Shown: positions 8,742 through 57,371 of the stretch, in pieces
Position numbering within the stretch: the first letter of the stretch is position 1
How the letters are laid out: every line of letters starts with the position of its first letter
From: a virus
IMG/VR virus record: IMGVR_UViG_3300029922_000001
Location: 230,512 to 294,511 of that record
Strand: one strand, 5' to 3'
DNA length: 64,000 bases
The notes under the pieces: model-generated
Databases searched by the model: none
Told to the model about the DNA's origin: nothing
The model's input: only the letters and a program-made list of their open reading frames with translations
Program-made: the position numbers and the translations under genes

Positions 8742-8759
8742 AATAATTCTCCTGTCTCG

Positions 8760-8833: not shown

Positions 8834-8996
8834 GTGTTTGTAATGGGTGTGGGGTTGGTATACGCTAATTAGCGTATACTTATGAAGCCAAACGCAGGAG
8901 AGTTCTGGGAAATATCATTATAGATTTGATAGTTTGACTTCATTACGTATCTATTATACCAGCATTTAGAGGAAAATTGTCTGAATTTCTATGTGT

Positions 8997-15209: not shown

Positions 15210-15379
15210 GCTTACATTATAACACTATTTGACTATAAAATACAACACTTTAGGTGGATTACGGTAATATTTAGCTAAAGTTGCTTGACCCTCCAGTGTT
15301 GCTAATGCACGATCAATAATAGCTTCTCTATCTTTCATATCTTGAATAATTGCATTAATATTTTTCGTGTTACTCGTGG

Positions 15380-15482
15380 AGCGGGTAGCGGAATTCGAAT
15401 CCGCATTTTAGCGTTCCTCTAAGTAAATATTTTAATATTTCTCACAGGCAACGCCATGTTCTAACCATTGAACTATATCCGC
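15380..15482 (-). tRNA. intron-containing tRNA, probable anticodon GCC (Gly); about 31-nt insertion in the anticodon loop; CCA encoded (15377..15379)
   Basis: Acceptor GCGGATA/TACCCGC with one mismatch. D-arm GTTC-AATGGTTA-GAAC. T-arm GCGGA-TTCGAAT-TCCGC. Anticodon stem TGGCG/CGCTA flanks TTGCC + 31 nt + AA. The insert contains an AAATATT/AATATTT hairpin. Confidence 0.55.
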
Positions 15483-18429: not shown

Positions 18430-18942
18430 CTAAGTACTATCTTTAGTTGGATTAACACTAAATAATTCTTTTCTTATTTCCATCCACAATTTTCCTAATT
18501 GATTTTGTCCATCTTTATTAGGTCCCCATCCCCAAAAATTATCACGCCAACTACACTCTACGATTGCATTATCACCACTAGCTTTAAGTTTTTTCATAAC
18601 ATACGGATGTTGATTTGCTTTTTCTTTTAAAATTTCTTTCATAATATCAAGTTTAACTTCATCCCAATCAACACGTCTTATATTTTTATTTTCCTCAGCC
18701 CATTTGAAACAAGCATGTGCTGAAGGCATTTTTCTAATCATATTTTTGATTTTTGGATCGTCAAATTTCTCAGAATGATAAGCGTGTTCTGATGTTGGAT
18801 AAATCTTACCCTTCCAATATAGTTGAAATGCAGAAAAATTAGAGAAAATATAATAATCACGTTCATAACAATCAAGGATTGGTAAGTCGTAATTCGCTAA
18901 ATCGTGATATTCAATCATGCTATTATTATAAGTAATCTTCAT
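18430..18942 (-). CDS. NADAR (YbiA-like) domain protein; predicted ADP-ribose N-glycosidase/hydrolase family
   Basis: Family signatures FSNFSAF ... YPTSEHAYHSEKF ... WGWGPNKDGQNQLGKLWMEIR. Confidence 0.8.
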   Translation of the reverse strand: MKITYNNSMIEYHDLANYDLPILDCYERDYYIFSNFSAFQLYWKGKIYPTSEHAYHSEKFDDPKIKNMIRKMPSAHACFKWAEENKNIRRVDWDEVKLDIMKEILKEKANQHPYVMKKLKASGDNAIVECSWRDNFWGWGPNKDGQNQLGKLWMEIRKELFSVNPTKDST

Positions 18943-20750: not shown

Positions 20751-20931
20751 TGCGAATTGGGATTTCTATGGTGAATTTTGCGCCTGAGTTTATTAATTCA
20801 GTATTTGAGACGATTAATTTTAAAATATGATCAAATTCTTCTTTATTAATATCTTTATTTATTAATAAAAAACCAGCTTTCATCGCCATATCATATGCTT
20901 TGTTGTTGTTCATAAGTACTCGGAGGGGCAT
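20725..20931 (-). CDS. hypothetical small protein
   Basis: 68-aa ORF. Its annotated start overlaps the 3' end of tRNA 20924..21013, so the true start may be internal. Confidence 0.3.
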   Translation of the reverse strand: MPLRVLMNNNKAYDMAMKAGFLLINKDINKEEFDHILKLIVSNTELINSGAKFTIEIPIRNEKNSSQK

Positions 20932-21013
20932 ACTAGAATCAAACTAGTTCATAACGCATTTGCTAGATCATTAACCTAGCAGTGCGTCGCGATTCTCATT
21001 TCGCCAATGCCCC
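20924..21013 (-). tRNA. intron-containing class I tRNA; anticodon GCU with a canonical or 36/37 insert, or GCA (Cys) if the insert lies 1-2 nt upstream; discriminator U
   Basis: Perfect acceptor GGGGCAT/ATGCCCC. D-arm GCG/CGC. T-arm ACTAG-TTTGATT-CTAGT. Anticodon stem ACGCA/TGCGT flanks CTGCT + 17 nt + AA. The insert hairpin GCTAG..CTAGC pairs with the anticodon. Confidence 0.6.
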
Positions 21014-21023
21014 AAACTCTCGG

Positions 21024-21099
21024 AGCGCGGAGGGAGAATCGAACTCAACCGAATAATGGTTTTGCAGACCATTCCAATTAACCACTCTGGTACCCGCGC
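21024..21099 (-). tRNA. tRNA-Cys (GCA)
   Basis: Acceptor GCGCGGG/TCCGCGC. D-arm CCAG-AGTGGTTAA-TTGG. Perfect anticodon stem ATGGT/ACCAT with loop CTGCAAA. Discriminator U, then CC, then GAG. The T-stem is weak. Confidence 0.7.
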
Positions 21100-22145: not shown

Positions 22146-22293
22146 TTATACCTTACGACGAATTCGTATGAGAGTATTATCTACTTCTTTTCTTGTGATA
22201 CCTAAAAAAGCAGCAATTGCACGATAAGATTTATTTAAACCATAAGCAATATAAACCTTGGTTTCATTTTGAGTTAATTCTAAATTATTCATA
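22146..22293 (-). CDS. small (about 48 aa) LuxR/sigma-70 region-4-type helix-turn-helix protein; not in the supplied ORF track
   Basis: Hand translation gives MNNLELTQNETKVYIAYGLNKSYRAIAAFLGITRKEVDNTLIRIRRKV. This matches the LuxR-type HTH consensus (LT..E..V......G.s..eIA..LgIs..TV...l.rI..Kl). Coordinates are +/-2 nt. Confidence 0.4.
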
Positions 22294-22318
22294 AGTGTAT
22301 TATAGCATATTTTCTCGC

Positions 22319-22407
22319 GGGAGCTTAGAGATTCGAACTCTAAAGGCGCTTTTTACACGCCTAGCTGTTTTCAAGACAGTTTACCGTCACCAATGGCAGA
22401 ACTCCCG
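22319..22407 (-). tRNA. tRNA-Ser (UGA), class II
   Basis: Acceptor GGGAGTT/AGCTCCC. Anticodon loop CTTGAAA. Variable arm GGCG-TGTAAAAAG-CGCC. T-arm TAGAG-TTCGAAT-CTCTA. Discriminator G, then CGAG. Confidence 0.7.
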
Positions 22408-22516
22408 TATTATTTCGCGGTAAGTAAAATATTCGAATTCGATTCAAAGAATATGAAGACAAACTTTGTTTAATTATTGATTCTATTTTAGGTAGACTTA
22501 ACAATTAAACATCTCG

Positions 22517-22602
22517 AAGACACCAGAATCGAACTGGACTCGCTTTTTACACGAGCGAACAACTTTCCAGGTTGCCGTCATCACCATCAGACATTATCTT
22601 CC
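22517..22602 (-). tRNA. tRNA-Ser (GGA), class II
   Basis: Acceptor GAAGATA/TGTCTTC. Anticodon stem GCAAC/GTTGT with loop CTGGAAA. Variable arm is homologous to that of the Ser(UGA) gene (..GTGTAAAAAGCG..). T-loop TTCGATT. Confidence 0.6.
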
Positions 22603-22615
22603 ATATTATCTCGGA

Positions 22616-22688
22616 GCGCCAAATTGGAATCGAACCAATTTCCTATTGCTTACCAAGCAATCGTTCACCCACATGAACTTTAAGCGCA
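22616..22688 (-). tRNA. tRNA-Thr (GGU)
   Basis: D-arm GTTC/GAAC. Perfect anticodon stem ATTGC/GCAAT with loop TTGGTAA. T-arm ATTGG-TTCGATT-CCAAT. U6:U67 mismatch in the acceptor stem. Discriminator T, then CC, then GAG. Confidence 0.7.
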
Positions 22689-22701
22689 TATATCTCGTGG
22701 A

Positions 22702-22772
22702 GGCTCAATAGAGAATCAAACTCTACTCTGCGGTTTACAAAACCGCTGCATCGTCACAATGCTTTAAAGCCA
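22702..22772 (-). tRNA. tRNA-Thr (UGU); CCA encoded (22699..22701)
   Basis: Acceptor GGCTTTA/TTGAGCC (U:U at 6:67). D-arm GCAT/ATGC. Anticodon stem GCGGT/ACCGC with loop TTTGTAA. T-arm TAGAG-TTTGATT-CTCTA. Confidence 0.7.
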
Positions 22773-22785
22773 TATTATCTCGTAA

Positions 22786-22884
22786 GCCTAGTATCTGATT
22801 CGAACAGATGATGTTTGTATTCTTACTTGTTCTATTTTTTAACACAACAAGGTAAGTGCAATCGACCGCTATGCAAACTAGGCA
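22786..22884 (-). tRNA. intron-containing tRNA (99 nt), probable anticodon UGU (Thr); duplicate of 22702..22772 carrying an insert
   Basis: Perfect acceptor GCCTAGT/ACTAGGC. T-arm ATCTG-TTCGAAT-CAGAT. Anticodon stem CTTAC/GTAAG flanks CTTGT + 18 nt + AA. The insert extends the anticodon helix (CTTGTT/AACAAG). Confidence 0.5.
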
Positions 22885-22898
22885 TTTTATCTCGTGGA

Positions 22899-22984
22899 GG
22901 AAGGCAGCGGGATCGAACCGCAGACGTATTTCAGTCCGTATAGTTTAGCAAACTATCCTAATCGCCGTTTTAGATTACCTTCCA
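22899..22984 (-). tRNA. tRNA-Ser (GCU), class II; CCA encoded (22896..22898)
   Basis: Acceptor GGAAGGT/GCCTTCC. Anticodon stem ATAGT/ACTAT with loop TTGCTAA. Long variable arm. T-loop TTCGATC. Confidence 0.65.
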
Positions 22985-22992
22985 TTATCTCG

Positions 22993-23076
22993 GCTAACGG
23001 GGAGATTCAAACTCCCGAAGGTTTTCACCGATGCATTACGAGTGCATTCCAATTGATCAACTATGGGACGTTAGCA
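22993..23076 (-). tRNA. class II-like tRNA with anticodon CGU (Thr by anticodon; identity uncertain)
   Basis: Perfect acceptor GCTAACG/CGTTAGC. Perfect anticodon stem ATGCA/TGCAT with loop CTCGTAA. Variable arm GGT-GAAA-ACC. T-arm GGGAG-TTTGAAT-CTCCC. Confidence 0.5.
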
Positions 23077-23399
23077 TTTAACATTTCTACATATCTAACT
23101 AAAACCTGACCGTGACACCTTTCTTGTTCGCCCCAACCAGTTTTAGGTCTACAAAAGCATACCAATTTTTTATTATGTAAGGATTTTACCTTATCTTTGA
23201 ATATTAAATCAGTTTCTAATCTATTTTTTAGATATTTTTCATATTCTGGTAAAGTAGAACTAGGAACTTGACCTGGAGATAATACTATTGGATTGCCAAA
23301 ATATCCACTCTGTCCTTTCCCTGCTCTACCTATGTAGACATATTCAGAATCTTGTTCCCAACCCTTGTTGAGATGATATAAATTTACTACTTCAGTCAT
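23061..23399 (-). CDS. DUF4326-like protein
   Basis: VYIGRAGKGQSGYFGNP ... KLVCFCRPKTGWGEQERCHGQVL matches the DUF4326 conserved core as recalled. Its 3' end overlaps the tRNA at 22993..23076 by about 16 nt. Confidence 0.5.
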   Translation of the reverse strand: MTEVVNLYHLNKGWEQDSEYVYIGRAGKGQSGYFGNPIVLSPGQVPSSTLPEYEKYLKNRLETDLIFKDKVKSLHNKKLVCFCRPKTGWGEQERCHGQVLVRYVEMLNANVP

Positions 23400-23952
23400 T
23401 GACTTCCTCTATATATGCTGGTGGCACATATTCTGTTAACCATACACCATTTTCAGAACGATAAAAAACAAATCTATTCAAATCCATTTGCTTTGAATCC
23501 ACCTTCAATAGTGCATACTTTCCTCTTCTAGAACCAACATTAATTGCTGTTTCTATGTTTTCAGAAAGATGAACCGCATGACGATACATCTTCTTAATTC
23601 CTTCCTCTAAAATCATTGGTACAGCATCATATGTTGTACCATGATAAAGAATGGCAGGAGGATTCAATGGAACTAACTGAAGATCAACTTCACAAGAATG
23701 ACCTTGATTGGCTCTAATTCTTGCTCCTGATTCATCATAAGAATATCTTTGCTTATTATTTTCCGTCACTAACTGATCTAAATCAGCCTTTGTGATGTTA
23801 ATATTAAACTTTTTCAAACCGTCTAATAGTTGTGTTACGAATACATAACCTCCAAGATCAAGCTTTTCAACTCCAATCTTTTGTGGCTCATGTCGCAATA
23901 TTAACGAAATAAACTTTCCTATTCTTTTAAATTCACGTTCATCCTTAATCAT
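23392..23952 (-). CDS. tpt1: RNA 2'-phosphotransferase Tpt1/KptA
   Basis: Canonical Tpt1 motifs: ISLILRHEPQKIG, ARIRANQGHS, LYHGT, RHAVHLS. Confidence 0.85.
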   Translation of the reverse strand: MIKDEREFKRIGKFISLILRHEPQKIGVEKLDLGGYVFVTQLLDGLKKFNINITKADLDQLVTENNKQRYSYDESGARIRANQGHSCEVDLQLVPLNPPAILYHGTTYDAVPMILEEGIKKMYRHAVHLSENIETAINVGSRRGKYALLKVDSKQMDLNRFVFYRSENGVWLTEYVPPAYIEEVND

Positions 23953-23974
23953 GTTCTTTTCCCTAACAATGCCC

Positions 23975-24505
23975 TTACTTTTTAGGTAAGAGCATTACTG
24001 TCATTTGTTTCCCTTGTAAGAGAATTTCCCTATCTACAGTTACAATATCATTTAGTTTTTCCAAACAATATTCCAACTTTTGCTTTCCAATATGAGGGTG
24101 AGCGAGTTCTTTTGTTTTGAACTTGCAAACCAACTGCACTTTGTCATGCTTCCCAATAAATTCAACCGCTTTACGAATTGACGTATCCAAGTCATGTACA
24201 GCCGTATTAGGGCTAATACAAAGTGTTTTAAGTTCTTGAGGCTTTTTACGGTTGTCTTTTGCACGTTTTGCCTCTTCATACTTATATTTGCCATAGCTTA
24301 CGATTTTGCAGATAGGTGGTTGTACCTTATCAGATACGCACAACAAATCTAAACCAGCATCATATGCTATTTGGATTGCATCCTTCGTGGGCATTACACC
24401 AATATTTTTGTTATTAGCGTCAATGACCGTTACTTCGGTAAATTGCTTAATGAGTCTTTCATTAAGGGGTGGGAATTCTCTGCGATTACTTTTTTTCATC
24501 ATCAT
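23975..24505 (-). CDS. infC: translation initiation factor IF3 (bacterial type)
   Basis: N-domain VTVIDANNKNIGVMPTKDAIQIAYDAGLDLLCVSDKVQPPICKIVSYGKYKYEE plus a C-domain. Matches the IF3 family end to end. Confidence 0.85.
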   Translation of the reverse strand: MMMKKSNRREFPPLNERLIKQFTEVTVIDANNKNIGVMPTKDAIQIAYDAGLDLLCVSDKVQPPICKIVSYGKYKYEEAKRAKDNRKKPQELKTLCISPNTAVHDLDTSIRKAVEFIGKHDKVQLVCKFKTKELAHPHIGKQKLEYCLEKLNDIVTVDREILLQGKQMTVMLLPKK

Positions 24506-24602
24506 AATAGATTGACCTATTATACCAGGGTATTCTTCTTCATTACAATCTTTCTCTATTCAATTTTCAATGTGCTTGAGTTTTAATTCTCGGTAAATAA
24601 AA

Positions 24603-24640
24603 AACAGGAAGTCCGACTTAGGTCTGTCGGACTTCCTGTT
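24603..24640. terminator. hairpin AACAGGAAGTCCGAC-(8 nt)-GTCGGACTTCCTGTT
   Basis: 15-bp perfect arms, unusually GC-rich for this sequence. Downstream of the minus-strand gene 24793..25326. Confidence 0.5.
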
Positions 24641-24792: not shown

Positions 24793-25326
24793 TTACCATG
24801 TTTTTTTGCTTTTACCATCAAAACCTGTTTCTTTTAAGATTCTATCCCAAATTTCTTCTTTTGGAGTGTTCCCTAAATATGGATCTTTTGCCCAATTCAA
24901 GTTGGTAATTTCTAGTATAACAGGAAATGGTGGAGTATAGGCTTCAGCTTCTTCTAAAGAAGAAAATTCCATTTCCATACTAAGCAAATAATGTCTATGG
25001 ATCATATATTCATTAATTTCTTCACCGCTAGATAAAAAAGTTCTTCGTTTTTCAACTCTTTTCATTTTTGGTATTAAATTGTAATTATAAAACCAATTAA
25101 AAAGAAAAATTGGGATTTTAATATTGTATTCTTTTCTGACCAAAGGATCTGAGGTTTTTAATTTAAAAGTTAATTCGCATTTATTTGAAACTGAATATGT
25201 TTTACGAATGCGACAACTTTTAAAAAATGGAAAATATCCTTGTGAAATGTATACGTTGTGTGTTTGAGTATCCCAAGGAATATCATTTTGATTTACTATA
25301 AACTTGCGTTCAATTTCATTAGCCAT
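24793..25326 (-). CDS. hypothetical protein, member of a local tandem paralog family (MANEIERKFIV...)
   Basis: 177 aa. The N- and C-terminal halves recur separately in 25653..25886 and 25340..25600. Confidence 0.5.
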   Translation of the reverse strand: MANEIERKFIVNQNDIPWDTQTHNVYISQGYFPFFKSCRIRKTYSVSNKCELTFKLKTSDPLVRKEYNIKIPIFLFNWFYNYNLIPKMKRVEKRRTFLSSGEEINEYMIHRHYLLSMEMEFSSLEEAEAYTPPFPVILEITNLNWAKDPYLGNTPKEEIWDRILKETGFDGKSKKTW

Positions 25327-25339
25327 GCTTTAGTATACT

Positions 25340-25886
25340 TCATTTACCAGGACCCCACTCAAGACCAGGGAATTTATTTAAATTTTCCTCAATTTCTTTC
25401 CAGGGTGTGATTGATAGATATGGCTCTTTCGCCCAAGGCACATGTGTAATCTCTGTAACGTACTTGAAATCAGGAATATAAGCTTGTGCATCTTCCAGAG
25501 AATCAAATTCCATTTCTACGATTACATAATACTGACCAGGATATTCATTAATTTGTTCTCCTGTTGGAATAATGTGTCGTGTTTTTTTAGTTTTAGTCAT
25601 CCAAGGTGTAAGATACCAAAGCGGGAAAAAGACAAATTTAGGGATTTTAAAGTTATATTCCTTCCTGTCCTAAATTGGTCTGTTTATTCTTGTTTTTCTT
25701 GAATGTCAATTCGTATGTGCGGTCTTCATCTGAATATAATTCTTCATAGGTAATGATAGACTCACGAATTCTGAGATTTTTAATTAAAGGGAAATATCCT
25801 TGGGAAATGTCATGCCATTCTATAACATTTTCCCAAGGAATTTGGGTTGGTCGCACTATAAACTTGCGTTCAATTTCATTAGCCAT
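25340..25886 (-). pseudogene. disrupted paralog of 24793..25326, split into an N-terminal ORF (25653..25886) and a C-terminal ORF (25340..25600) in different frames
   Basis: The 31-nt string TATAAACTTGCGTTCAATTTCATTAGCCAT is identical at 25296..25326 and 25856..25886. C-terminal homology: EMEFDSLEDAQAY..PWAKEPYL versus EMEFSSLEEAEAY..NWAKDPYL. Confidence 0.45.
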
Positions 25887-25893
25887 ATGGCTA

Positions 25894-26883
25894 TTATACT
25901 TGAGCAAGTTCGGCTTGTAGCTCTTTAATGCGCTTTTGGAGTTCAAGTTTCTTTTTAAGTGTCGCTTCTTCTCTAAGCAAAGCTTGGAATTCAGCATCAA
26001 CTTCTTCCACTGCAACAGTCTCTAAAGCAACATGCTTCTTTATGGCTTTAGCTGCTTTAGGCATTTCTGTAGCCAAGATTGGTACATATCCTCTTAGTAT
26101 AAGAGTAAGACTTGTTGCATGATCTTCAATATCAATCCATTCTTTTTGACCAAAGGTTTGATTGGATCTGCTACCTTCAACAGTGCAAACATCTTGTTCT
26201 CTTGATTCATTTAAAGATTTTGGCATAGCATTCGCAAATGAGTCTAAAGAATCCATTGACATGCTTGAAGCGGAATATGTTGGAGAACCAAAGCTTAATG
26301 AATTCAGTGAATTTACTGAATCTGAGCATAATCCTCTTACATTGCTTTTCATGGAAGATTGACCAATTAAAGCATTATTACTACCACACCAGACTTCATC
26401 ATGTCGTCTAGGGTAATGCTTGTAAGGGTATGAATAATCACGATACCAAGGATATGAATAATCATGATAATGATGATGATCTACTACGATTGGAATGTAG
26501 ACTGGTTGTGGTTTTTCTTTTTCTAACCAGAAGAAGGCTTCAACAACACCTTTGGAGCGGTCTTCATTAGAACCATTTTTTCCAAAATCAATAGCGTCAT
26601 TACTGTCTAAAGCAGCTAATTTAAAGCATTTGTTGGTTTCATAGAAGCGTTCAAGATCAATTGCGCTGTTAGCGTTAATAATATATCCATCACCGGATAC
26701 ATTTTCCCCGTCAATATGAATTTTGACCAAGGCTCTACGATTGTTTTTGTTTCTGAGGCGTAAACTATATTCTGATCCGAATGGAACTAGTACAGAATGA
26801 TCGTTTCTCTCTGGGAGAAAGTCGTTTTGATTTTTGAGCTTGATAGCAAGCACGAAGTTTTTGTTATACATATTTTTAACCAT
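25894..26883 (-). CDS. hypothetical protein with His/Tyr-rich low-complexity segment and C-terminal coiled coil
   Basis: The ORF is open to 26949. An internal Met at about 26883 avoids overlapping the divergent PARP gene. Contains HHHYHDYSYPWYRDYSYPYKHY. Confidence 0.5.
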   Translation of the reverse strand: MVKNMYNKNFVLAIKLKNQNDFLPERNDHSVLVPFGSEYSLRLRNKNNRRALVKIHIDGENVSGDGYIINANSAIDLERFYETNKCFKLAALDSNDAIDFGKNGSNEDRSKGVVEAFFWLEKEKPQPVYIPIVVDHHHYHDYSYPWYRDYSYPYKHYPRRHDEVWCGSNNALIGQSSMKSNVRGLCSDSVNSLNSLSFGSPTYSASSMSMDSLDSFANAMPKSLNESREQDVCTVEGSRSNQTFGQKEWIDIEDHATSLTLILRGYVPILATEMPKAAKAIKKHVALETVAVEEVDAEFQALLREEATLKKKLELQKRIKELQAELAQV

Positions 26884-27081: not shown

Positions 27082-28380
27082 ATGAGTAGCATTCTCGCTA
27101 GTAAGAAATACATTTATACGGATATCCAGGCGAATAACAATAAGTTCTGGAATATTGACCGCTATGACGATCATACAGTAATTACACGTTGGGGACGTGT
27201 TGGCGACAAAGAACAAAGCAAATCTTTCCCACATGGATCTGAAACTTCCGCAATTGCTTTTTTTAATCAAAAGTGTAGTGAAAAATCCAAGAAGGGTTAT
27301 ACCGAACAACGAACCATTGAATCCAATACTACCGTAAAGCAAACAACCGTTGCTTCATCCAATCTTGAAAGTATTGCTAAAAGACAGATTCAAACTAATT
27401 CACCTGAACTAGATGCTTTGATTTCAAGGCTTACCAAAGCTAACATTCATAGCATTGTCGCAAACAGTAATATTAGCTATAACGATACAACTGGTTTGTT
27501 TTCAACGCCATTAGGAATTATTGATGAAGATGCGATTTTGGAAGCTAGAGAACTTCTAGTGTCCATTAATTCTATTGTTCTCAATAGAGACTTTGGAAAT
27601 AAGGATTTTGCTGGAATCACCAATAAGTATTTTAGAATCGTTCCTACAGTTATCGGTAGATATCGTCAAGAACCTCAAGACCTATTCCCTAATAAGGAAA
27701 CCGTTGTAAAGCAAAATGATCTTTTGGACTCACTTGAAGTCAGCTTGCAAACTGCTAAGGCAACCCCTGTAACTGCTACAACATCTGTTGAACCTGAAAA
27801 GAACATCTTTAATGTTAAGCTTCATGTGGTTGATGATCTTCCTGTTATTCAACGAATTACAGCCAAATATCAATCAACAATGAATCGTGGTCATCAGTGT
27901 TCCCATCTTGGTGTTAAGCGTGTTTATGAATTAGAAATTGGTGCTATGAAGACTGCTTTCGAAAATAAGGGTAAGCAAATTGGTGGTATTCAAGAGTTGT
28001 GGCACGGTTCAAGAGTTGCCAATATTCTTTCTATTCTCTATAAGGGAATGATTATCCCACCTTCTAATTCTAGTTTTGTGGCTGGTCGTTTGTTTGGAGA
28101 CGGTTTGTATTTTGCCAACCAAAGCACAAAGTCTCTTAATTATTCTTATGGATATTGGGATGCTAAAGGCAAGGACGAAAATTGCTTTATGTTCCTTTGT
28201 GATGTAGCTATGGGCAAGCACTATACTCCTAAGTATTTACAATCCAATATTCCTGCTGGATATGATAGTTTCTGGGCTAAGGCTGGTATTTCTGGCGTAC
28301 AGAATGATGAAATCATCGTTCCACGTCTTTATCAAGCCAATCCTAGATATTTGATCGAATTCTCACCAGGTGGTAGATAA
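27082..28380 (+). CDS. poly(ADP-ribose) polymerase (WGR domain + PARP regulatory/catalytic domains)
   Basis: WGR domain FWNIDRYDDHTVITRWGRVGDKEQSKS. Catalytic region HGSRVANILSILYKGM ... GDGLYFANQSTKSLNYS ... E in the C-terminus. True ATG is at 27082; the longer track ORF from 26797 overlaps the neighbouring gene. Confidence 0.85.
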   Translation: MSSILASKKYIYTDIQANNNKFWNIDRYDDHTVITRWGRVGDKEQSKSFPHGSETSAIAFFNQKCSEKSKKGYTEQRTIESNTTVKQTTVASSNLESIAKRQIQTNSPELDALISRLTKANIHSIVANSNISYNDTTGLFSTPLGIIDEDAILEARELLVSINSIVLNRDFGNKDFAGITNKYFRIVPTVIGRYRQEPQDLFPNKETVVKQNDLLDSLEVSLQTAKATPVTATTSVEPEKNIFNVKLHVVDDLPVIQRITAKYQSTMNRGHQCSHLGVKRVYELEIGAMKTAFENKGKQIGGIQELWHGSRVANILSILYKGMIIPPSNSSFVAGRLFGDGLYFANQSTKSLNYSYGYWDAKGKDENCFMFLCDVAMGKHYTPKYLQSNIPAGYDSFWAKAGISGVQNDEIIVPRLYQANPRYLIEFSPGGR

Positions 28381-34303: not shown

Positions 34304-35779
34304 ATGAATCAGTTATGGTATACTAACTCCATGTTTGACACAGATCGTTTAATTCATTTAGAAAAGCTACAAGAAGCTGGTTTAAATCCATTTGATAATT
34401 ATGGATTTAAGATGACTTCACCAATTGGGTTATATCTTGATACTTTTAATGTATTGATTAATGCTGTTTGTTTTGATAATACACATAGTTTATGTGGTCG
34501 CATTATTTCTATGCGTATTATGGGTAATATGGCTTTTGTTGATATTTCCGATGGTTCTCACAAGGTCCAGGCTGTTTTCCGTAAGAACCTAATGGATGCT
34601 GACACTTATAAGGCATTAAGATACCTAGATGAAGGTGATCATATTGGCGTGACTGGCAATCCATTTCTTACCCAAGCTGGTGAGAAGTCAATTCTTGTTA
34701 CAGAAATTAAGGTTCTAAGTAAGTGTCTTATCCCTTTACCAATTGGTAAGAGGAAGGATGGGGAAGTCTTTGATGCAGTTGTAGATCCAGATATTAGGCT
34801 TAGGCATCGTCATATTGACCTTGTAGCCAATCCAGATAATAGGGCGATGTTAATTGCACGTTCAAAGATGGTAAGCTGTATTAGGCGATTTTTAGATCAA
34901 GAAGATTTTCTTGAAGTTGAAACACCTTTACTAACTGAGGTTGCTGGTGGAGCAAGTGCTAAGACATTTGATACTCATTATAATGCTTATGATTTAGATA
35001 TGCATCTTCGTATTTCTTTGGAAATTCCTTTGAAGAAGTTGATTTGTGGTGATATTCCTGCCGTTTATGAAATTGGTAAGGTTTTCCGCAATGAAGGTGC
35101 TGACGCAACTCATAATCCAGAATTTACACTTTTGGAATGGTATCGTGCGTATTCAACACCAGAAGAGGAAATGCAAAGGGTTCAAGATTTAGTTTCATAT
35201 TTGATGCAAAAGTGGGATGCTGATCCTGCATGGGATGTAATTACTGTGCGTGATGCTATTTTAACCTATGTGCCTGATGTTTCCTGGTATGATCTTGATG
35301 TTATTGAGAAAATGAGAGAACATGCTCGTAGAAATGGAATCCATGTAACAGATCAAGATACTATGGGGAAGATTGAAGAAAAGCTAGTCGCTAAGTTCGT
35401 TGAGCCTAATCTGTTATATCCCACATTCTTAACAGAACATCATATCAGTAATTCACCTTTAGCTAGAACAGCACCAGGGAAGCCTGATCGTGCTTATAGA
35501 TTTGAAGCATATATTAATGGTTATGAAATCGCTAATGGTTATTCTGAGTTAAACAATGCAGTTGAACAAAAGGAACGATTAGAGGATCAAGTAGCTCAAA
35601 GAAATGGTGGAGACGCTGAAGCACAACCTTATGATCAAGATTTTATTTATGCTCTTGCCTCCGGTTGCCCTGCCGTAACGGGCGTGGGAATCGGTCTAGA
35701 TAGATTGGCAATGGTATTATATGGAGCAACACAAATTAGGCAAGTAATATTTTTCCCAACAATGAAGCATAGGAGTTAA
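34304..35779 (+). CDS. lysS: lysyl-tRNA synthetase (class IIb)
   Basis: N-terminal OB anticodon-binding domain. Motif 2 FRNEGADATHNPEFTLLEWYRAY is LysRS-specific (HNPEFT). Motif 3 GVGIGLDRLAMVL. Confidence 0.9.
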   Translation: MNQLWYTNSMFDTDRLIHLEKLQEAGLNPFDNYGFKMTSPIGLYLDTFNVLINAVCFDNTHSLCGRIISMRIMGNMAFVDISDGSHKVQAVFRKNLMDADTYKALRYLDEGDHIGVTGNPFLTQAGEKSILVTEIKVLSKCLIPLPIGKRKDGEVFDAVVDPDIRLRHRHIDLVANPDNRAMLIARSKMVSCIRRFLDQEDFLEVETPLLTEVAGGASAKTFDTHYNAYDLDMHLRISLEIPLKKLICGDIPAVYEIGKVFRNEGADATHNPEFTLLEWYRAYSTPEEEMQRVQDLVSYLMQKWDADPAWDVITVRDAILTYVPDVSWYDLDVIEKMREHARRNGIHVTDQDTMGKIEEKLVAKFVEPNLLYPTFLTEHHISNSPLARTAPGKPDRAYRFEAYINGYEIANGYSELNNAVEQKERLEDQVAQRNGGDAEAQPYDQDFIYALASGCPAVTGVGIGLDRLAMVLYGATQIRQVIFFPTMKHRS

Positions 35780-39204: not shown

Positions 39205-39651
39205 CTATGGTGATTTCGCCCAATAGTTTTTATAATGTTTAACTTCAGCATCTAAATCAAAAGGTAATCCTTTAACATGGTTGAAGTAAGCTTTAGATAT
39301 AATGCCAGTCATATCATCCGCATGAAGTACTCCTAAATTTTTAAACCACTTAGCTAATACGGAGTCATGCCACAATCCCCAGGTATTGCGCATATAAGTA
39401 CCATAGCCATGATGTGGCATCATTTCATAAGTGGATTTAGCATCATTTTTGATGAAATCTATATATTCAGGAGTTGCCACTGAATCAAAATAAGCGATAA
39501 CTTCATCTAGATTATTTGGGATATTGGTTGCACTAATAGCGGGTAAGATTTTTACAACCTTAACTAGCCTATTAAAATATTCATTATTATCGAAAGCGTC
39601 TTGAATTGATTTGTCTGTGACTTTTTCCATGCGTACTTCATCATTGTTCAT
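39205..39651 (-). CDS. hypothetical protein
   Basis: 148-aa ORF. Confidence 0.45.
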   Translation of the reverse strand: MNNDEVRMEKVTDKSIQDAFDNNEYFNRLVKVVKILPAISATNIPNNLDEVIAYFDSVATPEYIDFIKNDAKSTYEMMPHHGYGTYMRNTWGLWHDSVLAKWFKNLGVLHADDMTGIISKAYFNHVKGLPFDLDAEVKHYKNYWAKSP

Positions 39652-40196
39652 AGTTTATTATACTTAATCAGATTCTCTTCTTGTGTGATTTTATCCCAAG
39701 GTGCTTTAGATTGAAGAACTTTTTCAACAGTTGGATCATAATCCCAACGTTTAATCATATTTTGAATACTTTTAAGAGGTACACTATGTTGATTTCTTTT
39801 AGCTAATTCTTGTGCATCGAATTTCCAAGGTGTTTCAGGTTCATGAAAACTAACTTTATAATCATATTTTTGAGCAAGTTTTACGTACTCTCGAAATTCA
39901 TAAAAAGAACAATTTGTATTGTCACAAATAATAGGAGTAATACCTTGTTGCATTGCCACTTCAGTTCTTCTTTCATTTTCTTTATGATTTTCAGTTAGTT
40001 TATTAACATCAAATTTATATTCACCATTAACCATAAATAGATCATCAGTAGAATGAATAACTCCACCTTTTCCTAATTGCTTAGAAAGAAAACTTTTGCC
40101 AGAACCGGGAAGTCCGCGAATTATTCTTAACTCTTTTTCTTGTTGTGCTTTTCTATACCAAGTAGACATAATTCGATTATACCATTTTTCTATCAA
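39648..40196 (-). CDS. P-loop kinase (AAA_33 / polynucleotide-kinase-like)
   Basis: Walker A RGLPGSGKSFLSKQL and a downstream ICDNTN segment, consistent with a Walker B / Asp-containing lid. 182 aa. Confidence 0.6.
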   Translation of the reverse strand: MIEKWYNRIMSTWYRKAQQEKELRIIRGLPGSGKSFLSKQLGKGGVIHSTDDLFMVNGEYKFDVNKLTENHKENERRTEVAMQQGITPIICDNTNCSFYEFREYVKLAQKYDYKVSFHEPETPWKFDAQELAKRNQHSVPLKSIQNMIKRWDYDPTVEKVLQSKAPWDKITQEENLIKYNKL

Positions 40197-42764: not shown

Positions 42765-43439
42765 TTAAATTATTACTCTCACTTTGGGTTTAACCCAAAG
42801 TGACTCAATAGTAAAATAAACAACAATACCTAAAGCTGGATTAATTTCATATTCATGCTCTCCATCTTCATTTATAACAGGTTGATCATTATCATCATAT
42901 AAATAAATATGCCCACGAACATCATCGGCAGGTAAACATTTAATTTTACTAACTTGTAAATCACCATAAACTTGTATATTTTTACATACGGCTTCACGGT
43001 GAGCATCCTCAAACATGTTTAAGCCATCATCAAATAGTAATTCTTGGCGATTGTAACCAGCCTGATTAAGTGTTTGATAAATATAAACATCTAATTGTCT
43101 AGATAAGCTTCTAATGGCTTTATTTGCACTAGACTCACTAAATAAAGCACCCATTCTTTCATCCCAAGGCAAATCACACTTTGGATCACGCATTCTTACT
43201 GCTAATGAACATGCTATTTCAATAGGTTTAATACTGTCTAAGTCTATTGTTTTAATTTGTTGTGGTATATGAAAGCGACTATTAGATAATGCCACAACGT
43301 CCATATTAATATATGAAGAATCTATGACTGTTAAAATACTTTTCCAAGTGTTGGTAATACCATCAAATTTTTCTTGAATAACTAATTCCTGTTGTTTAGT
43401 TGCTTCAATCCTATCATTTACATTTTTAAAGTAATTCAT
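42765..43439 (-). CDS. hypothetical protein
   Basis: 224-aa ORF. Confidence 0.5.
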   Translation of the reverse strand: MNYFKNVNDRIEATKQQELVIQEKFDGITNTWKSILTVIDSSYINMDVVALSNSRFHIPQQIKTIDLDSIKPIEIACSLAVRMRDPKCDLPWDERMGALFSESSANKAIRSLSRQLDVYIYQTLNQAGYNRQELLFDDGLNMFEDAHREAVCKNIQVYGDLQVSKIKCLPADDVRGHIYLYDDNDQPVINEDGEHEYEINPALGIVVYFTIESLWVKPKVRVII

Positions 43440-44302
43440 ATATTATTATAAGTCATTTTATAATCATAATCATAAGCCTTAAACCACTTCCTGATAGCAT
43501 TATCACTAACTCCATATTTCTTACCAATCTTAACCATTGATAAAGTTTTGTAATCTTCAATTAATTGTTCTAATGATGGTCTTTCTGCTTTTCGTGTATT
43601 TAATGCACGATCTTGTGAGTTTGGTAATACAATATTAAAGTATTTACATATTCTTATAATTTTACTTTCAGAACATTTAAATTGTTTGCCAATTAATTTT
43701 AATCCATTTTTATTAATCAATTGTTGGAGTTCTTCTTTGGTTAAATTATTATCATCTACCCAAATTTTATAATCTTTTTTTTGTCTTTCTTTAACCTCTT
43801 TTATTGATAAATGTTTTGCCCATAATTTGTTTTTAGATCCAAAATTATCAGTTTGACTATGACAGTTAGGACATAAAAATCTTAAATTATCTTGTGTATT
43901 ATGAGTGTAGTTTCCATCAACATGATCAACGTGTAATGTTATTTTCTTTCCTAACCAATCTTTATTGACAAAACATTCACTACCTTCACACTCATAAGGT
44001 CTTCCAGTTTCAATAAGAGCCCTAGTTAATAATTTAGATGATACTCTGTTATTTCCAAATTTTATATTTACTAAAATATCTTCGGCAGTTTTACGATTTA
44101 CACTTTTCTTGCCTCTCATCCAGTTTTCACTATTGAAATGGTCTGTATTAATATTAAAATAATTAACTCTACGTTTAATGTGTGTTTGGCTACCACCAGC
44201 TTGTACAATATTTAGATTTCTTAAAACCCCTGCATAGGAAAAACTTTTATTTACCGCTTCTTCTAATATGTCTTTTGTGTATTTTTCTTTATATTTTCTC
44301 AT
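43436..44302 (-). CDS. HNH homing-endonuclease-like protein
   Basis: HVDHVDGNYTHNTQDNLRFLCPNCHSQTD (HNH core), plus a C-terminal DNA-binding-like region. Lies directly next to the tRNA-Leu array. Confidence 0.7.
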   Translation of the reverse strand: MRKYKEKYTKDILEEAVNKSFSYAGVLRNLNIVQAGGSQTHIKRRVNYFNINTDHFNSENWMRGKKSVNRKTAEDILVNIKFGNNRVSSKLLTRALIETGRPYECEGSECFVNKDWLGKKITLHVDHVDGNYTHNTQDNLRFLCPNCHSQTDNFGSKNKLWAKHLSIKEVKERQKKDYKIWVDDNNLTKEELQQLINKNGLKLIGKQFKCSESKIIRICKYFNIVLPNSQDRALNTRKAERPSLEQLIEDYKTLSMVKIGKKYGVSDNAIRKWFKAYDYDYKMTYNNI

Positions 44303-44651: not shown

Positions 44652-44871
44652 ATATTTCTCGTATAAGAAATTAATTCTTATTTTGTGAATCAAGTTGTCT
44701 TACTCTACTAAATAAAGCATCTCTCATTTCTTTGTTTTCACTTACTTCTTTAGCGTATGCACCCATCATATTTCTAAACATTTTTTGACCTTCTTCAGTA
44801 TTCATTGCTGATTCAATTATTTTCATTTTTTCAGGACTTGTTATAATCATATTAATTCTCCAATATCTCGG

Positions 44872-44973
44872 TGAGCAAACAGGGACTTGAACCCTGATGA
44901 CATTTTACTGTCGATGGGTTAGCAAAATTCTGATCTTGCTAAGCCCATTGCGTCTACATTTCGCCATTCGCCC
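44872..44973 (-). tRNA. intron-containing tRNA-Leu (UAG), class II, 102 nt with an 18-nt insert in the anticodon loop
   Basis: Acceptor GGGCGAA/TTTGCTC. Anticodon stem ATGGG/CCCAT flanks CTTAG + 18 nt + AA. The insert forms the TTAGCAA/TTGCTAA helix with the anticodon. Variable arm GACA-GTAAAA-TGTC. T-arm CAGGG-TTCAAGT-CCCTG. Confidence 0.55.
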
Positions 44974-45417: not shown

Positions 45418-46764
45418 GTGAAACAAATTATTACAGCTAAATTAAAATTAGAAACAAATAAAGAACAATTTAAAGAATTAACTAATCTTAGTTTAGCTTA
45501 TTGTGGCGCTTTGAATTTTGGCTCTAATAAAGCCTTTGAATTAGACAAAACTACTAATGCTAACTTATTGCACAAAAGTATATATCGAGAATGTCGTGAT
45601 AAATTTGGATTACCATCACAATTAGCTTGTAGCGTTTCTAGATATGTTACTGCTTCTTATAAAACATTGTGGACAATTACCAATAAAAATATTAAAGCAA
45701 GAAAAAACAAAGAAACTAAGAGAGTTTATAAAGGACTGAATAAAGCTCCAAAATATATATCAAGAACGACTATGTTTCAATATGGTAGAGATTTTACATT
45801 CAAGAAGGATCAACAAATTAGTATTATTACTCTTAATGGAAGAATTCTTCTAGATTATAAAGGATGGAATAAACATCTTAATTTAATTAAAGATGAAAAT
45901 ACCAAAATTGGTGGAGCTAAACTTTATTATGATAAAGCTAAGAAAACTTTCTATCTCTTAGTTAGTTTAGAAATAGAAACACAAGAAGAAAAACAAATTA
46001 ACACAATAGGTATTGATTTGGGTCAAAGATATTTGGCTGTGGTAACTGATACACAAGATAATACATTGTTTATTCCTGGTAAGGAATGTATTAATCAAGT
46101 TGGAAAATATCAACGAGTTCGTAGTAGTCTTCAAAAAAAGATTAAAACGAATAAGAAAAATGGTAAAGGCACTCGTTCTATAACTAGAAAATTAATCCAA
46201 GTTAAAGGACAAGAGAGACGGTATAGATTATCATTAAATCATCAAACAGCAAGTTCGATATTACAAAGATTTCCTAATTCAAATATAGGATTAGAAAATC
46301 TTAAAGATATTAGAACAAGAACAGAAAGACATAGCAGTAAAAAAGATAGCAAAAAAAGAAAAGAAGCTAATCGTAATAAAGCTTCTTGGTCTTTTAATGA
46401 GTTACAACAATTAATAGAATATAAAGCTAATTTATATGGTAGTAAAATATTTAAAGTAGATGCCCATTATACATCTCAAATGTGTACTAAATGTGGTTAT
46501 ACTTCTAAAGAAAACAGACCTAAAAGTGGCTTGAATTTTATTTGTTGTAATTGTAATTTTAAATTACATGCTGATTTGATTGGAGCTAGAAATATAGCTA
46601 TGAGAACATTGTTATCTAGACAAGATTTAGATAATAAGGGGCATTTATCAATTGTCCCAGTAAGCGGCAAAGCCGCTTTAGATACCTCGAACAGTGAAGT
46701 TAAAGCGGAATCCTTGAAAAAGTATTCTGAATTGAGATGGAGTTCGGAGGCAAACTTAACTTAA
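45418..46764 (+). CDS. tnpB: TnpB (IS200/IS605 OrfB) RuvC-like RNA-guided-nuclease family protein (Fanzor/TnpB-like)
   Basis: RuvC-I IGIDLGQRYLAVVTD. RuvC-II ..SWSFNELQQLIEYKA. Zinc finger CTKCGY ... CCNCNF. RuvC-III HADLIGARNIAMR. GTG start in the track. Confidence 0.8.
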   Translation: MKQIITAKLKLETNKEQFKELTNLSLAYCGALNFGSNKAFELDKTTNANLLHKSIYRECRDKFGLPSQLACSVSRYVTASYKTLWTITNKNIKARKNKETKRVYKGLNKAPKYISRTTMFQYGRDFTFKKDQQISIITLNGRILLDYKGWNKHLNLIKDENTKIGGAKLYYDKAKKTFYLLVSLEIETQEEKQINTIGIDLGQRYLAVVTDTQDNTLFIPGKECINQVGKYQRVRSSLQKKIKTNKKNGKGTRSITRKLIQVKGQERRYRLSLNHQTASSILQRFPNSNIGLENLKDIRTRTERHSSKKDSKKRKEANRNKASWSFNELQQLIEYKANLYGSKIFKVDAHYTSQMCTKCGYTSKENRPKSGLNFICCNCNFKLHADLIGARNIAMRTLLSRQDLDNKGHLSIVPVSGKAALDTSNSEVKAESLKKYSELRWSSEANLT

Positions 46765-51205: not shown

Positions 51206-52018
51206 ATGAATATAAAAGTTAGTGGAATATATAGAATTATAAACAAAATAAACAATAAATCATATGTAGGAAGTTCTACAGATATACAAGATAGATGGTG
51301 GAAACATAGAAAAATGTTAAAAAATAATAATCATTCTAATCCTCATTTACAGGCATCATATAATAAATATTCAAGTGTTGTTTTTGATTTTGAAATATTG
51401 CAATCTATGCCAGGGGCAACCACTAAAGAACTCCAAGAAAAAGAATTATCATGGATGTTATTTTTAAATGTACATAATAATAAAAATGGGTATAACATTA
51501 ACGGAGTTGAAGGTTATAAAATAGGTTTTAAGCACACTGAAGAAACTAAAAAGAAAATAAGTGAATCTGTAAAAAACAGAACATACACAGAAGAACAATT
51601 GGAAAATTTAAGAAACAATTTAAGTAAAATAATTAACAATCCAGAAACGAAAAGGAAAATTTCAGAATCTAAAAAAGGAAAATTATTAACAAAAGAACAT
51701 AAAAGGAAAATTTCAGAATCTAAAAAAGGAAAATTATTAACAGAAGAACATAAAAGAAAAGTTGGTGATGGTAATCGCGGTAAAATAATAAGCGAAGACA
51801 CAAGAGAAAAACAAAAAATATCTATTTTAAACAATAAGGAATTTATGAACAAATTAATTAAAAAATGGATAATAATAAATCCTGATGGGGAAGAATATAA
51901 AATAGAAAATTTATCTCAATTTTGTAGAGATAATCAATTAAGAGATGGATGTATGTCTTTAGTTGCGCAAGGTAAAAGAAAATCACATAAAGGATGGAGT
52001 TGTTATGAAATTAAATAA
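51206..52018 (+). CDS. GIY-YIG homing endonuclease with NUMOD3-type DNA-binding repeats (T4 Seg-like)
   Basis: [18 protein letters not shown] ... R..H (GIY-YIG core). Tandem repeats [16 protein letters not shown](K/E)[24 protein letters not shown]. Confidence 0.8.
51655..51750 (+). repeat. direct tandem repeat (about 42 nt x 2.2) encoding the NUMOD3-like [14 protein letters not shown] unit inside the GIY-YIG gene
   Basis: AAAGGAAAATTTCAGAATCTAAAAAAGGAAAATTATTAACA.AGAACATAAAAG appears twice in succession. Confidence 0.6.
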
Positions 52019-55246: not shown

Positions 55247-55696
55247 TTGAGAATACTATTTTTAGATGACATGCCTGAACGCTATGACTACTTCATGGGT
55301 TTGTTGAACCGTCCAGATATTGAAGTTGATTGGGCTAAAAATGCTGATGAATTTTATCCGATGCTTGAAAATCCAAGATATGACATTTTCTTTTTGGATC
55401 ATGATTTAAGTGCAGAACATTACACTAAATTAAACACCCTAGATCAAGCAGATCATACAAAAATAGAATGTAAAGAAGAAACTGGATATGATATTACTAA
55501 ACGATTAATCCACTTACAAAAAGACAAACATCCTGATTATATTGTTGTTCATACACTGAATTCTCAAGGTGGTAAAAATATGATGTCTTGTTTAAGAGAA
55601 ATGGATTCAACTCTTATTCGCGCATATTTCGCATTTCCTGATTTTCAGAATGTGGTTTATCAACTCGCCCACCAAAAAATTAGTAAAACTAATTAG
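55247..55696 (+). CDS. hypothetical protein, possible receiver (REC/CheY-like) fold
   Basis: MRILFLDD ... DIFFLDHDLS ... YIVVHTLNSQGG resembles REC beta1/beta3/beta4 elements. This is a weak call. TTG start 2 nt after the upstream stop. Confidence 0.4.
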   Translation: MRILFLDDMPERYDYFMGLLNRPDIEVDWAKNADEFYPMLENPRYDIFFLDHDLSAEHYTKLNTLDQADHTKIECKEETGYDITKRLIHLQKDKHPDYIVVHTLNSQGGKNMMSCLREMDSTLIRAYFAFPDFQNVVYQLAHQKISKTN

Positions 55697-57332: not shown

Positions 57333-57371
57333 ATATAGCATTATCATACGTTTGCTTGGTATAATCAATGT

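Follow-up and report, generated by a model that had tools for sequence, protein, structure and literature searches.

Why does a bacteriophage genome place a predicted RNA 2'-phosphotransferase between a translation initiation factor and a row of tRNA genes? The question is raised by a 64-kb stretch of viral DNA, here called the window, whose positions are used throughout; the carrier of the phosphotransferase gene is the metagenomic contig ena:ERZ27248709:k141_1408874 of 521,591 bp. On its minus strand the window encodes, in the order of transcription, a bacterial-type translation initiation factor 3 (IF3), the RNA 2'-phosphotransferase Tpt1/KptA, a DUF4326 protein and seven Thr and Ser tRNAs. 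The initial annotation had seen in these genes, together with a T4-type polynucleotide kinase-phosphatase (PNKP) and a lysyl-tRNA synthetase (LysRS), a self-contained module for tRNA maturation, repair and the takeover of translation initiation. We favor the view that IF3, the tRNAs and the Tpt1/DUF4326 pair make up an accessory operon which would keep phage translation running, a reading that we consider about evenly poised between right and wrong.

The analysis covered the window plus ~10 kb of flanking DNA, and every negative result on genes applies to this DNA and not to the other ~457 kb of the genome. For comparison we used 80 other viral Tpt1 loci with their neighbours within 6 kb, and 87 other viral DUF4326 loci, 41 of which were at least 6 kb long.

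The IF3-Tpt1-DUF4326-tRNA unit

All genes of the unit lie on the minus strand and are tightly packed without an internal terminator-like site, which bears out their co-orientation as originally proposed. The gene order given there has to be turned around, since transcription runs in reverse with IF3 first. A promoter-like site with an extended -10 element (24519..24548, minus strand; TTGTAA-18-TATAAT with a TG extension, TGGTATAAT) was located by consensus match 13 nt upstream of the IF3 ATG, and no Shine-Dalgarno sequence was found between the two. Further upstream a hairpin resembling an intrinsic terminator (24603..24640, minus strand), likewise a consensus match, has a 15-bp stem with 8 G-C pairs followed by a T-run. 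It would close the upstream CYTH-like genes and marks the probable upstream limit of the IF3 unit. The gap from IF3 to Tpt1 is 22 nt, the start of DUF4326 overlaps the stop of Tpt1 by 8 nt (ATGA, ATGACTGA), and the first tRNA gene overlaps the last 15 nt of DUF4326. From 24505 to 20500 no minus-strand terminator-like site was found; downstream of the tRNA array this stretch holds three small open reading frames (ORFs) and then two tRNA-Cys genes (21099..20922). We infer that IF3, Tpt1, DUF4326 and the tRNAs are co-transcribed from one promoter.

The first gene (23975..24505, minus strand) encodes a bacterial-type IF3 of 176 amino acids (aa) with an N domain, a Lys-rich linker and a C domain. 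Pfam scores were 83.4 bits for IF3_N (cut-off 26.9) and 69.2 bits for IF3_C (cut-off 34.8), the basic linker reads KYEEAKRAKDNRKKPQELK, and residues 22-175 aligned with ribosome-bound IF3 (PDB 5me0) with E=6.5e-29. Identity to any cellular IF3 in the homolog list was 43% at most.

The second gene (23392..23952, minus strand) encodes a 186-aa protein of the NAD+-dependent RNA 2'-phosphotransferase family. It matched PTS_2-RNA (PF01885) with 152.5 bits at a cut-off of 26, spanning profile positions 4-176 of 177, and its best solved relative was the tRNA 2'-phosphotransferase PDB 7kw8 (E=2.5e-44). R20, H21, R69 and R124 are invariant in an alignment of 24 sequences and correspond to chain positions 16, 17, 64 and 119 of 7kw8, which we take to be the published catalytic tetrad of Runella Tpt1. 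Judged by profile and alignment, Tpt1 is a bona fide member of its family with an intact Arg-His-Arg-Arg tetrad, and its activity is predicted.

The third gene (23061..23399, minus strand) encodes a DUF4326 protein of 112 aa, recognized by PF14216 with 54 bits at a cut-off of 25. Its motifs YIGR, FGNP, CxC and CHG show no variation in 46 sequences. The AlphaFold model had a pLDDT of 92, and among viral structures it matched DUF4326 proteins from phages and giant viruses, including fusions with SLOG or with NADAR plus PTP domains. By a prediction of the Aravind group, DUF4326 is an enzyme of the rhodanese-phosphatase type whose substrates are ribose-linked phosphates in derivatives of ADP-ribose (ADPr) (PMC9503650). 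Because of this predicted role and its translational coupling to Tpt1, DUF4326 fits a producer/processor pair in which Tpt1 would be the producer. In another viral locus (L007), a 115-aa ORF overlapping the stop of Tpt1 was considered as a DUF4326 homolog and dropped, as BLASTP and Pfam showed no similarity.

The tRNA array begins with a tRNA-Thr(CGU) (22992..23075, minus strand as are all genes of the array) that has a structured long variable arm and looks like type II. It is 93% identical to its counterpart in a related viral locus (L102:8673-8757), with a compensatory change from U-A to C-G in the stem of the variable arm. Excision of this tRNA would strip the DUF4326 mRNA of its stop codon, which lies in the 15-nt overlap. 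There follow tRNA-Ser(GCU) (22895..22983), a tRNA-Thr(UGU) with an 18-nt hairpin intron at 22829..22846 and a 12-nt unstructured variable loop (22785..22883; identified by ARAGORN -i and by its ortholog), an intron-less tRNA-Thr(UGU) (22698..22771), tRNA-Thr(GGU) (22613..22687), tRNA-Ser(GGA) (22515..22601) and, as the last of the array, tRNA-Ser(UGA) (22317..22406). After the latter, TGCTATAAT-N6-ATG opens a 48-aa ORF (22146..22292). The two tRNA-Cys(GCA) genes further downstream occupy 20922..21099 on the minus strand, the second of them (20922..21013) with a 17-nt hairpin intron at 20962..20978. Nearly every tRNA of the array is followed by a spacer CGAGATAA(A/T)ATG, here at 22306..22317, 22602..22613, 22771..22782 and 22883..22894, and in the related phage at L102:8660-8675, 8755-8768 and 8848-8860. 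This conserved spacer may be a processing signal. A 3' CCA is not encoded by all tRNA genes of the array.

Within its lineage the arrangement exceeds chance, for it recurs in close relatives. L102/L103, with ~70% coding DNA identity, keep the order of a PARP gene on the opposite strand, two ORFs, IF3, Tpt1, DUF4326 and tRNAs, and in L102 Tpt1 and DUF4326 still overlap at ATGA. In L184/L185, of which L184 is a 99% strain variant, the order is kept as far as the contig end inside DUF4326. Beyond these relatives, Tpt1 and IF3 were met near tRNA genes separately. A tRNA lies within 1 kb of Tpt1 in 7 of the 80 viral loci; in L053/L055 Tpt1 sits inside an array of 13 tRNAs without introns, L050 and L080 have a tmRNA close to Tpt1, and in L004 and L006 a tmRNA is close to IF3. 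Other IF3 genes of huge phages have a tRNA within ~20 nt downstream in two loci and tRNAs or a tmRNA within a few kb. Deposited phage records with homologs numbered 97 for Tpt1 and 47 for IF3. As far as gene neighbourhoods can tell, Tpt1 and IF3 of huge phages each tend to be placed in 'translation' regions rich in tRNAs.

The start regions of the window's genes bear on the role of IF3. TATAAT-N6-ATG occurred 22 times in the window against 2.7 ± 1.6 expected, and each of the 22 ATGs opens an ORF of at least 48 aa. TATAAT at N5 spacing precedes another 11 ORF starts, and the extended form TGnTATAAT-N6-ATG was seen 7 times against 0.16 expected. Examples of such starts are 57360..57374 (PNKP), 18916..18930 (NADAR), 40167..40181, 25884..25898 and 22290..22304; the leaderless-looking genes include PNKP, NADAR, an AAA_33 kinase and a CYTH-like gene. 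Thus roughly one gene in three in the window appears leaderless, with the start codon at the 5' end of the transcript, 5-6 nt past TATAAT. IF3 is an initiation factor reported to inhibit the translation of leaderless mRNA when abundant (PMC9031893). The divergent phage IF3 would re-tune the selection of start sites, which may matter for the many leaderless-looking genes, and altered discrimination by a phage IF3 would be a plausible means of takeover.

Short hairpin introns in tRNA genes

Insertions of 17-31 nt interrupt the anticodon loop in 4 of the 15 tRNAs of the window, namely Gly-GCC (15377..15482), Cys-GCA (20922..21013), Thr-UGU (22785..22883) and Leu-UAG (44870..44973). That the tRNAs of the array carry introns, as had been stated, is correct for one of its seven genes (22785..22883) and incorrect for the rest; the other three interrupted genes lie elsewhere in the window. 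All four were found by the intron mode of ARAGORN, and two were also, independently, strong Rfam tRNA matches with 52.8 and 38.6 bits whose anticodon loop holds an extra block. The interrupted Thr-UGU and Cys-GCA genes each adjoin an intron-less gene of the same anticodon.

The best-defined case is tRNA-Thr(UGU). Its intron of 18 nt, TGTGTTAAAAAATAGAAC, lies between nucleotides 36 and 37, and the insertion is fixed exactly by an intron-less ortholog (L102:8767-8849). In the two orthologs, the acceptor stem and the anticodon stem show compensatory changes, which indicates that both copies are under tRNA constraint. ARAGORN had placed the intron of 22785..22883 at 33/34, yielding a 'Val-AAC' tRNA, which is wrong by the intron-less ortholog. 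For Gly, Cys and Leu the boundaries are our choice among placements that yield a valid tRNA. The choices were supported by G1-C72, C2-G71, G3-C70 and U73 in Gly(GCC) and by the type II structure and the position inside a Leu cluster in Leu(UAG); the third is Cys(GCA). With these boundaries the insertions are at 36/37 in three tRNAs and at 35/36 in one, and all four sequences spliced in silico were called as the expected tRNAs without intron mode.

In every minimum-free-energy fold, intron and anticodon stem formed a single long hairpin, the former extending the latter. In all four cases there is pairing between the final dinucleotide of the 5' exon and that of the intron (Gly CC-GG, Cys GC-GC, Thr GU-AC, Leu AG-CU), so that in the predicted folds the cut sites are 2 bp apart in a continuous helix and leave 2-nt 3' overhangs on both products, again in four of four. 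Eight Watson-Crick matches would arise by chance with a probability of ~(1/4)^8 = 1.5e-5, a figure to be read with three of the four boundaries being chosen and not fixed. The modelled geometry suggests an RNase III-like excision giving 5'-phosphate and 3'-OH ends. Such ends are the products of RNase III and can be sealed directly by a ligase of the Rnl type. Because they need no healing, the geometry speaks against the view that intron removal depends on PNKP or Tpt1. To our knowledge there is no case of RNase III-dependent removal of a tRNA intron. The likeness to RNase III sites lies in the staggered cuts with 2-nt 3' overhangs; the helices here differ in being only ~14-20 bp long including the anticodon stem, and unlike plain RNase III processing the removal of an intron would also need a ligase.

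Other types of introns fit less well. A protein-spliced intron of the archaeal or eukaryal type was rejected as there is no bulge-helix-bulge (BHB), no 3-nt bulges and no insertion at 37/38. A group I intron was rejected because insertions of only 17-31 nt compare with a core of more than ~200 nt, and Rfam scans covering the insertions gave no group I match. The closest parallel is provided by the introns of Lak megaphages (Devoto et al. 2019, PMC6784885), which are likewise insertions in the anticodon loop that look protein-free and are too short for group I. They are listed with 79-114 nt and a tRNA-like T-arm, in contrast to the simple hairpins of 17-31 nt described here, and share no sequence with them. 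The true excision of the Lak Thr(UGU) intron was one nucleotide off the 37/38 predicted by tRNAscan (PMC6784885), and in our own reading this offset would fit the 36/37 seen here. In a viral contig of 197 kb, a tRNA located 1.5 kb upstream of Tpt1 has its anticodon loop interrupted by an insertion of ~50 nt that includes the T-arm-like GTTCGAGTCC (L027:4407-4534). The extension of the hairpin geometry to the Lak introns and this insertion was given up, since both are longer, have a T-arm-like segment and belong to a different class. Introns called by ARAGORN beside Tpt1 in L053/L055 proved to be artefacts of merged adjacent tRNAs, as Rfam showed ordinary tRNAs. The cultured 469-kb Sinorhizobium phage Phosso (PV764938.1) has a tRNA-Ile(UAU) of 93 nt located 0.5 kb downstream of IF3 (L188:5995-6087); it was discarded as an intron case, its length being due to a long variable arm instead. 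Among huge phages, the placement of unusual tRNAs with a long arm next to IF3 may recur.

Genes for RNA-end healing, phage origin and neighbours

If Tpt1 and PNKP were successive steps of one pathway, as the initial annotation had it, PNKP should leave something for Tpt1 to act on. The PNKP gene (57372..58250, plus strand) scored 111.9 bits for HAD_PNKP and 74.2 bits for AAA_33, with AAA_33 at residues 9-142, HAD_PNKP at 158-286, the P-loop GVPGSGKST and the phosphatase motif DMDQT (DxDxT). It aligned over its full length (residues 10-286) with T4 Pnkp (PDB 1ltq; E=4.6e-30). The PNKP and Tpt1 calls had been made subject to profile thresholds, and both clear the curated Pfam cut-offs, as does every other family assigned to the unit and to LysRS. 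T4 Pnkp heals RNA to 3'-OH/2'-OH and 5'-phosphate ends and leaves no 2'-phosphate. Moreover, 33 kb and a change of strand separate PNKP from Tpt1, and the shared pathway falls on both grounds. LysRS (34304..35779, plus strand) is a class II enzyme with 227.3 bits for tRNA-synt_2 and 56.9 bits for the OB anticodon-binding domain. The identities of PNKP and LysRS are therefore secure, and their membership of the island is not, with both on the plus strand at distances of 32.9 kb and 9.8 kb, respectively. PNKP starts at its own TGGTATAAT-N6-ATG, 32.9 kb from the operon on the opposite strand, and by position and predicted promoters PNKP and LysRS are separate units outside the operon, each with its own promoter.

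Further candidates for RNA-end healing are cREC, a cyclic-phosphate-processing receiver protein encoded 1.7 kb upstream of PNKP (55247..55696, plus strand; 56.5 bits, cut-off 27), and a second AAA_33 kinase that stands alone (39648..40169, minus strand) and is followed by a DUF6794 gene. No RNA ligase of the Rnl1 or Rnl2 type was found in the window by Pfam scans, within the sensitivity of the profiles. Nor did Pfam scans of the window reveal genes for a splicing endonuclease, RNase III, a 2H enzyme or RtcB, and with neither these nor a ligase gene in the window, the idea of a self-contained module was abandoned. A statement that the window has no KxDG motif is literally wrong, as K.DG occurs four times in ORFs of at least 80 aa; its substance holds in that no ligase is detectable in the window, for none of these ORFs showed similarity to ligases by Pfam or PDB sequence search. 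One of them (42765..43439, 'EKFDGITN') was considered as a minimal RNA ligase and rejected without Pfam or PDB support; its neighbour (43436..44302, minus strand), directly after the Leu tRNA cluster, is an HNH endonuclease gene.

Judged by gene content, the source is a bacteriophage, a megaphage of at least 521 kb, and not a eukaryotic virus. A giant eukaryotic virus had been considered in view of a PARP with a WGR domain, the short tRNA introns and TnpB/Fanzor-like genes, and was rejected on the bacterial and phage gene content. Window and flanks have as hallmarks a GH108 plus PG_binding_3 endolysin, GIY-YIG and HNH endonucleases, TnpB, a sigma70-like gene and ThyX. Phage origin follows from the endolysin with GH108 and peptidoglycan-binding domains, the bacterial-type IF3 and Tpt1, a tmRNA, the sigma70-like gene, the strong over-representation of TATAAT promoters of the bacterial type and the relatives among huge phages. 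In the homolog search the nearest relatives of Tpt1 were from bacteria or contigs resembling huge phages. No close relative was found among deposited phage genomes; a search of IMG/VR for further relatives with an exact 25-mer of the conserved tRNA gave 0 matches, and patterns from the Tpt1 protein alone retrieved no further relatives.

The tmRNA gene (63063..63417, plus strand) was predicted by ARAGORN with the tag peptide GKSYAYVG* and scored 62.9 bits (cut-off 47) in a permissive Rfam search; it was not recovered by the whole-window Rfam scan at gathering thresholds. A TGGTATAAT box is located 19 nt upstream. Mobile elements comprise two TnpB genes (OrfB_IS605 plus Cas12f-like TNB; 45418..46764, plus strand, and 52685..53794, minus strand), the HNH gene mentioned above and a GIY-YIG/NUMOD3 endonuclease (51206..52018, plus strand). 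Two paralogous minus-strand ORFs of 406 and 365 aa (58569..59789 and 59948..61045) share the motifs PVAFH.LQRDD and YILSKKEYIG and had no Pfam match.

Genes related to NAD+ and ADP-ribose surround the unit. A NADAR-domain protein, known from precomputed Pfam matches, is encoded 4.1 kb downstream of DUF4326 (18430..18918, minus strand). A PARP with WGR, regulatory and catalytic domains by Pfam lies ~3 kb upstream of the unit (27082..28380, plus strand), divergent from the ORFs upstream of IF3, and is kept in L102 and L184. PARP is also present near an unrelated DUF4326 locus (L180). The window further holds a gene resembling a nucleoside deoxyribosyltransferase. NadA (quinolinate synthase) is an extra gene of L184 (2984-4072), located between trypsin-like and Rv2179c-like genes, and is not in the window. 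Just upstream of the IF3 unit's terminator-like hairpin, the tandem CYTH/triphosphate-tunnel-like genes (24793..25326 and 25340..25886, minus strand; N-terminal MANEIERKF) matched PDB 3typ (E=4e-6) and 2fbl (hypothetical protein NE1496, E=9e-6). In the second copy the gene is broken up into two ORFs, and the position of the tandem is kept in L102 and L184.

Readings of the unit and its place among known systems

In the accessory operon that we favor, the tRNA genes would supplement or replace host tRNAs and IF3 would act as outlined above. Tpt1 and DUF4326 would form a translationally coupled, NAD+-dependent pair for RNA clean-up. Tpt1 would strip 2'-phosphates from repaired RNA, most plausibly from tRNAs that were cut by host anticodon nucleases and then resealed, and DUF4326 would dispose of the ADP-ribose by-product. 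The substrates of Tpt1, the activity of DUF4326 and the role of IF3 are here what we infer from the gene families and their arrangement. PNKP, cREC, LysRS, tmRNA, NADAR and PARP share the themes of translation, RNA-end healing and NAD+/ADP-ribose with the operon, but are separate units.

Several observations weigh against this reading. DUF4326 or IF3 was not found within 6 kb of Tpt1 in any of the 80 other viral Tpt1 loci, nor was Tpt1 in any of the 87 other DUF4326 loci; the adjacency is limited to one lineage, so that gene order says little in favor of a common function. Promoter and terminator were both called by consensus match alone, and promoter-like sites overall were not enriched in the region (19 found, 27 expected). 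The Tpt1 gene of L102/L103 (L102:7447-8004) has an in-frame TAA six codons ahead of the LRHEP motif, and the called product of 133 aa is without R20 and H21, which suggests that Tpt1 may be dispensable there. In the window we found no source of internal 2'-phosphates, be it a Trl1-like ligase or a 2H enzyme, and since a Pnkp of the T4 type erases 2' and 3' phosphates it would leave no 2'-phosphate for Tpt1. As for DUF4326, Foldseek of its model against the PDB gave no significant match, and a relationship to the NADAR superfamily was ruled out at the profile level, with an hhalign probability of 0.5% against the NADAR alignment. Finally, bacterial Tpt1 is reported to ADP-ribosylate 5'-phosphate ends as well (PMC12678800).

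The last point opens the way to a different function. Tpt1 might mainly be an ADP-ribosyltransferase that caps 5'-phosphate ends of RNA or DNA, as part of a NAD+/ADPr conflict toolkit with DUF4326, NADAR and PARP, its position between IF3 and tRNAs being incidental. We regard this as unlikely. The surroundings are rich in NAD+/ADPr genes (PARP, NADAR, cREC, the deoxyribosyltransferase-like gene; NadA in L184), and no other family was near Tpt1 as often or over as wide a range of viral loci as NADAR, which lies within 6 kb in 13 of the 80 loci as well as in L007 and 4 kb downstream here. Yet the catalytic tetrad for the removal of 2'-phosphate is intact, Tpt1 is located beside tRNA or tmRNA genes in several lineages of huge phages, and a target for capping cannot be named from sequence. 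We also hold it unlikely that the genes have no functional link and came together by chance, as a mosaic accretion in a hypervariable accessory region where each gene acts independently. Such a mosaic would explain why the gene combination is confined to one lineage, why the region has a load of mobile elements with two TnpB, HNH and GIY-YIG endonucleases, and why relatives differ by insertions (NadA in L184, an 87-aa ORF in L102) and a rearranged tRNA order. It does not account for the Tpt1/DUF4326 overlap being kept at ~70% DNA identity, for the tight packing behind a single promoter-like site, or for the coherence of the themes, i.e. translation, tRNA and NAD+-dependent RNA chemistry, which recur separately in other huge phages.

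Still less probable in our estimate is that Tpt1 and PNKP take part in splicing the tRNAs of the phage itself, that is by cutting, healing and a ligation that leaves a 2'-phosphate for removal by Tpt1 as in fungi and plants. The missing BHB, the positions 36/37 or 35/36 and the cuts offset by 2 bp, which are of the RNase III type and sealable without Pnkp or Tpt1, speak against it, as does the failure to find ligase and endonuclease genes in the window. In addition, other huge phages place Tpt1 in intron-free tRNA arrays, and a PNKP of the T4 type erases 2' and 3' phosphates. These points outweigh what can be said for splicing: interrupted tRNAs make up 4 of 15 in the window, with insertions of 17-31 nt in the anticodon loop, and one of these belongs to the operon, 178 nt past DUF4326; L102 lacks the intron in the orthologous tRNA and has a stop in Tpt1, which is a single co-variation; and the window encodes cREC, a predicted cyclic phosphodiesterase, and two AAA_33 kinases. 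Also on the side of splicing, bacterial Tpt1 is reported to have no known natural substrate (PMC6097658).

With the accessory operon as the preferred reading, the comparison with known systems is as follows. For jumbo phages KptA, PNK-HAD, cREC, IF3, DUF4326, NADAR, tRNAs, tmRNA and aminoacyl-tRNA synthetases have been catalogued (Iyer et al. 2021, 2022; PMC7824862, PMC9503650), and the roles predicted there are that KptA clears 2'-phosphates of tRNA repair, PNK-HAD and cREC heal RNA ends, and IF3 aids phage translation (PMC7824862, PMC9503650). Every component described here is shared with that repertoire; what differs here is that IF3, Tpt1, DUF4326 and tRNAs are packed into one unit, and that no RNA ligase was detected in the window. 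Judged by its distribution among the viral loci, the operon is lineage-specific and built from the known gene repertoire of jumbo phages. With the repair system of phage T4 (Pnkp plus Rnl1 against PrrC) it shares a full-length Pnkp of the T4 type and many tRNA genes. Unlike in T4, no ligase of the Rnl1 or Rnl2 type was detected in the window, and a distance of 33 kb separates Pnkp from the operon, which is on the opposite strand. T4 itself has no Tpt1, and its repair pathway leaves no 2'-phosphate. Fungal and plant splicing (Sen, Trl1, Tpt1) resembles the locus in that Tpt1 has tRNA genes as neighbours, including some with an interrupted anticodon loop; it differs in that the introns here are at 36/37 or 35/36 without a splice-site bulge, no Sen/EndA or Trl1 gene was seen, and the host is bacterial. 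As far as our searches show, new elements are the operon, the coupling of Tpt1 with DUF4326, the short RNase III-like hairpin introns and the dense leaderless signature.

A speculative scheme would join all of these: hairpin introns that mask the anticodon would be excised by an RNase III-type cut, the exons resealed by a phage ligase, junction and by-product cleaned up by Tpt1 and DUF4326, and initiation biased by IF3 toward leaderless mRNAs. We give it very slight credence. If true, the cycle of excision and religation would be a new protein-dependent class of tRNA introns in bacterial viruses and would provide the first physiological substrate of a bacterial-type Tpt1.

Taken together, the operon is one more case of the known carriage by huge phages of genes for translation, RNA-end healing and NAD+/ADP-ribose, and it is the kind of cluster to be expected there. 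The coupling of Tpt1 and DUF4326 offers a direct assay for a DUF that is widespread in phages and giant viruses. The intron geometry, found in four cases with one boundary fixed by an ortholog, provides a testable mechanism for the 'enigmatic' tRNA introns of megaphages. Likewise, a very divergent IF3 amid genes of which about one third in the window look leaderless makes a virus-directed reprogramming of start-site selection testable.

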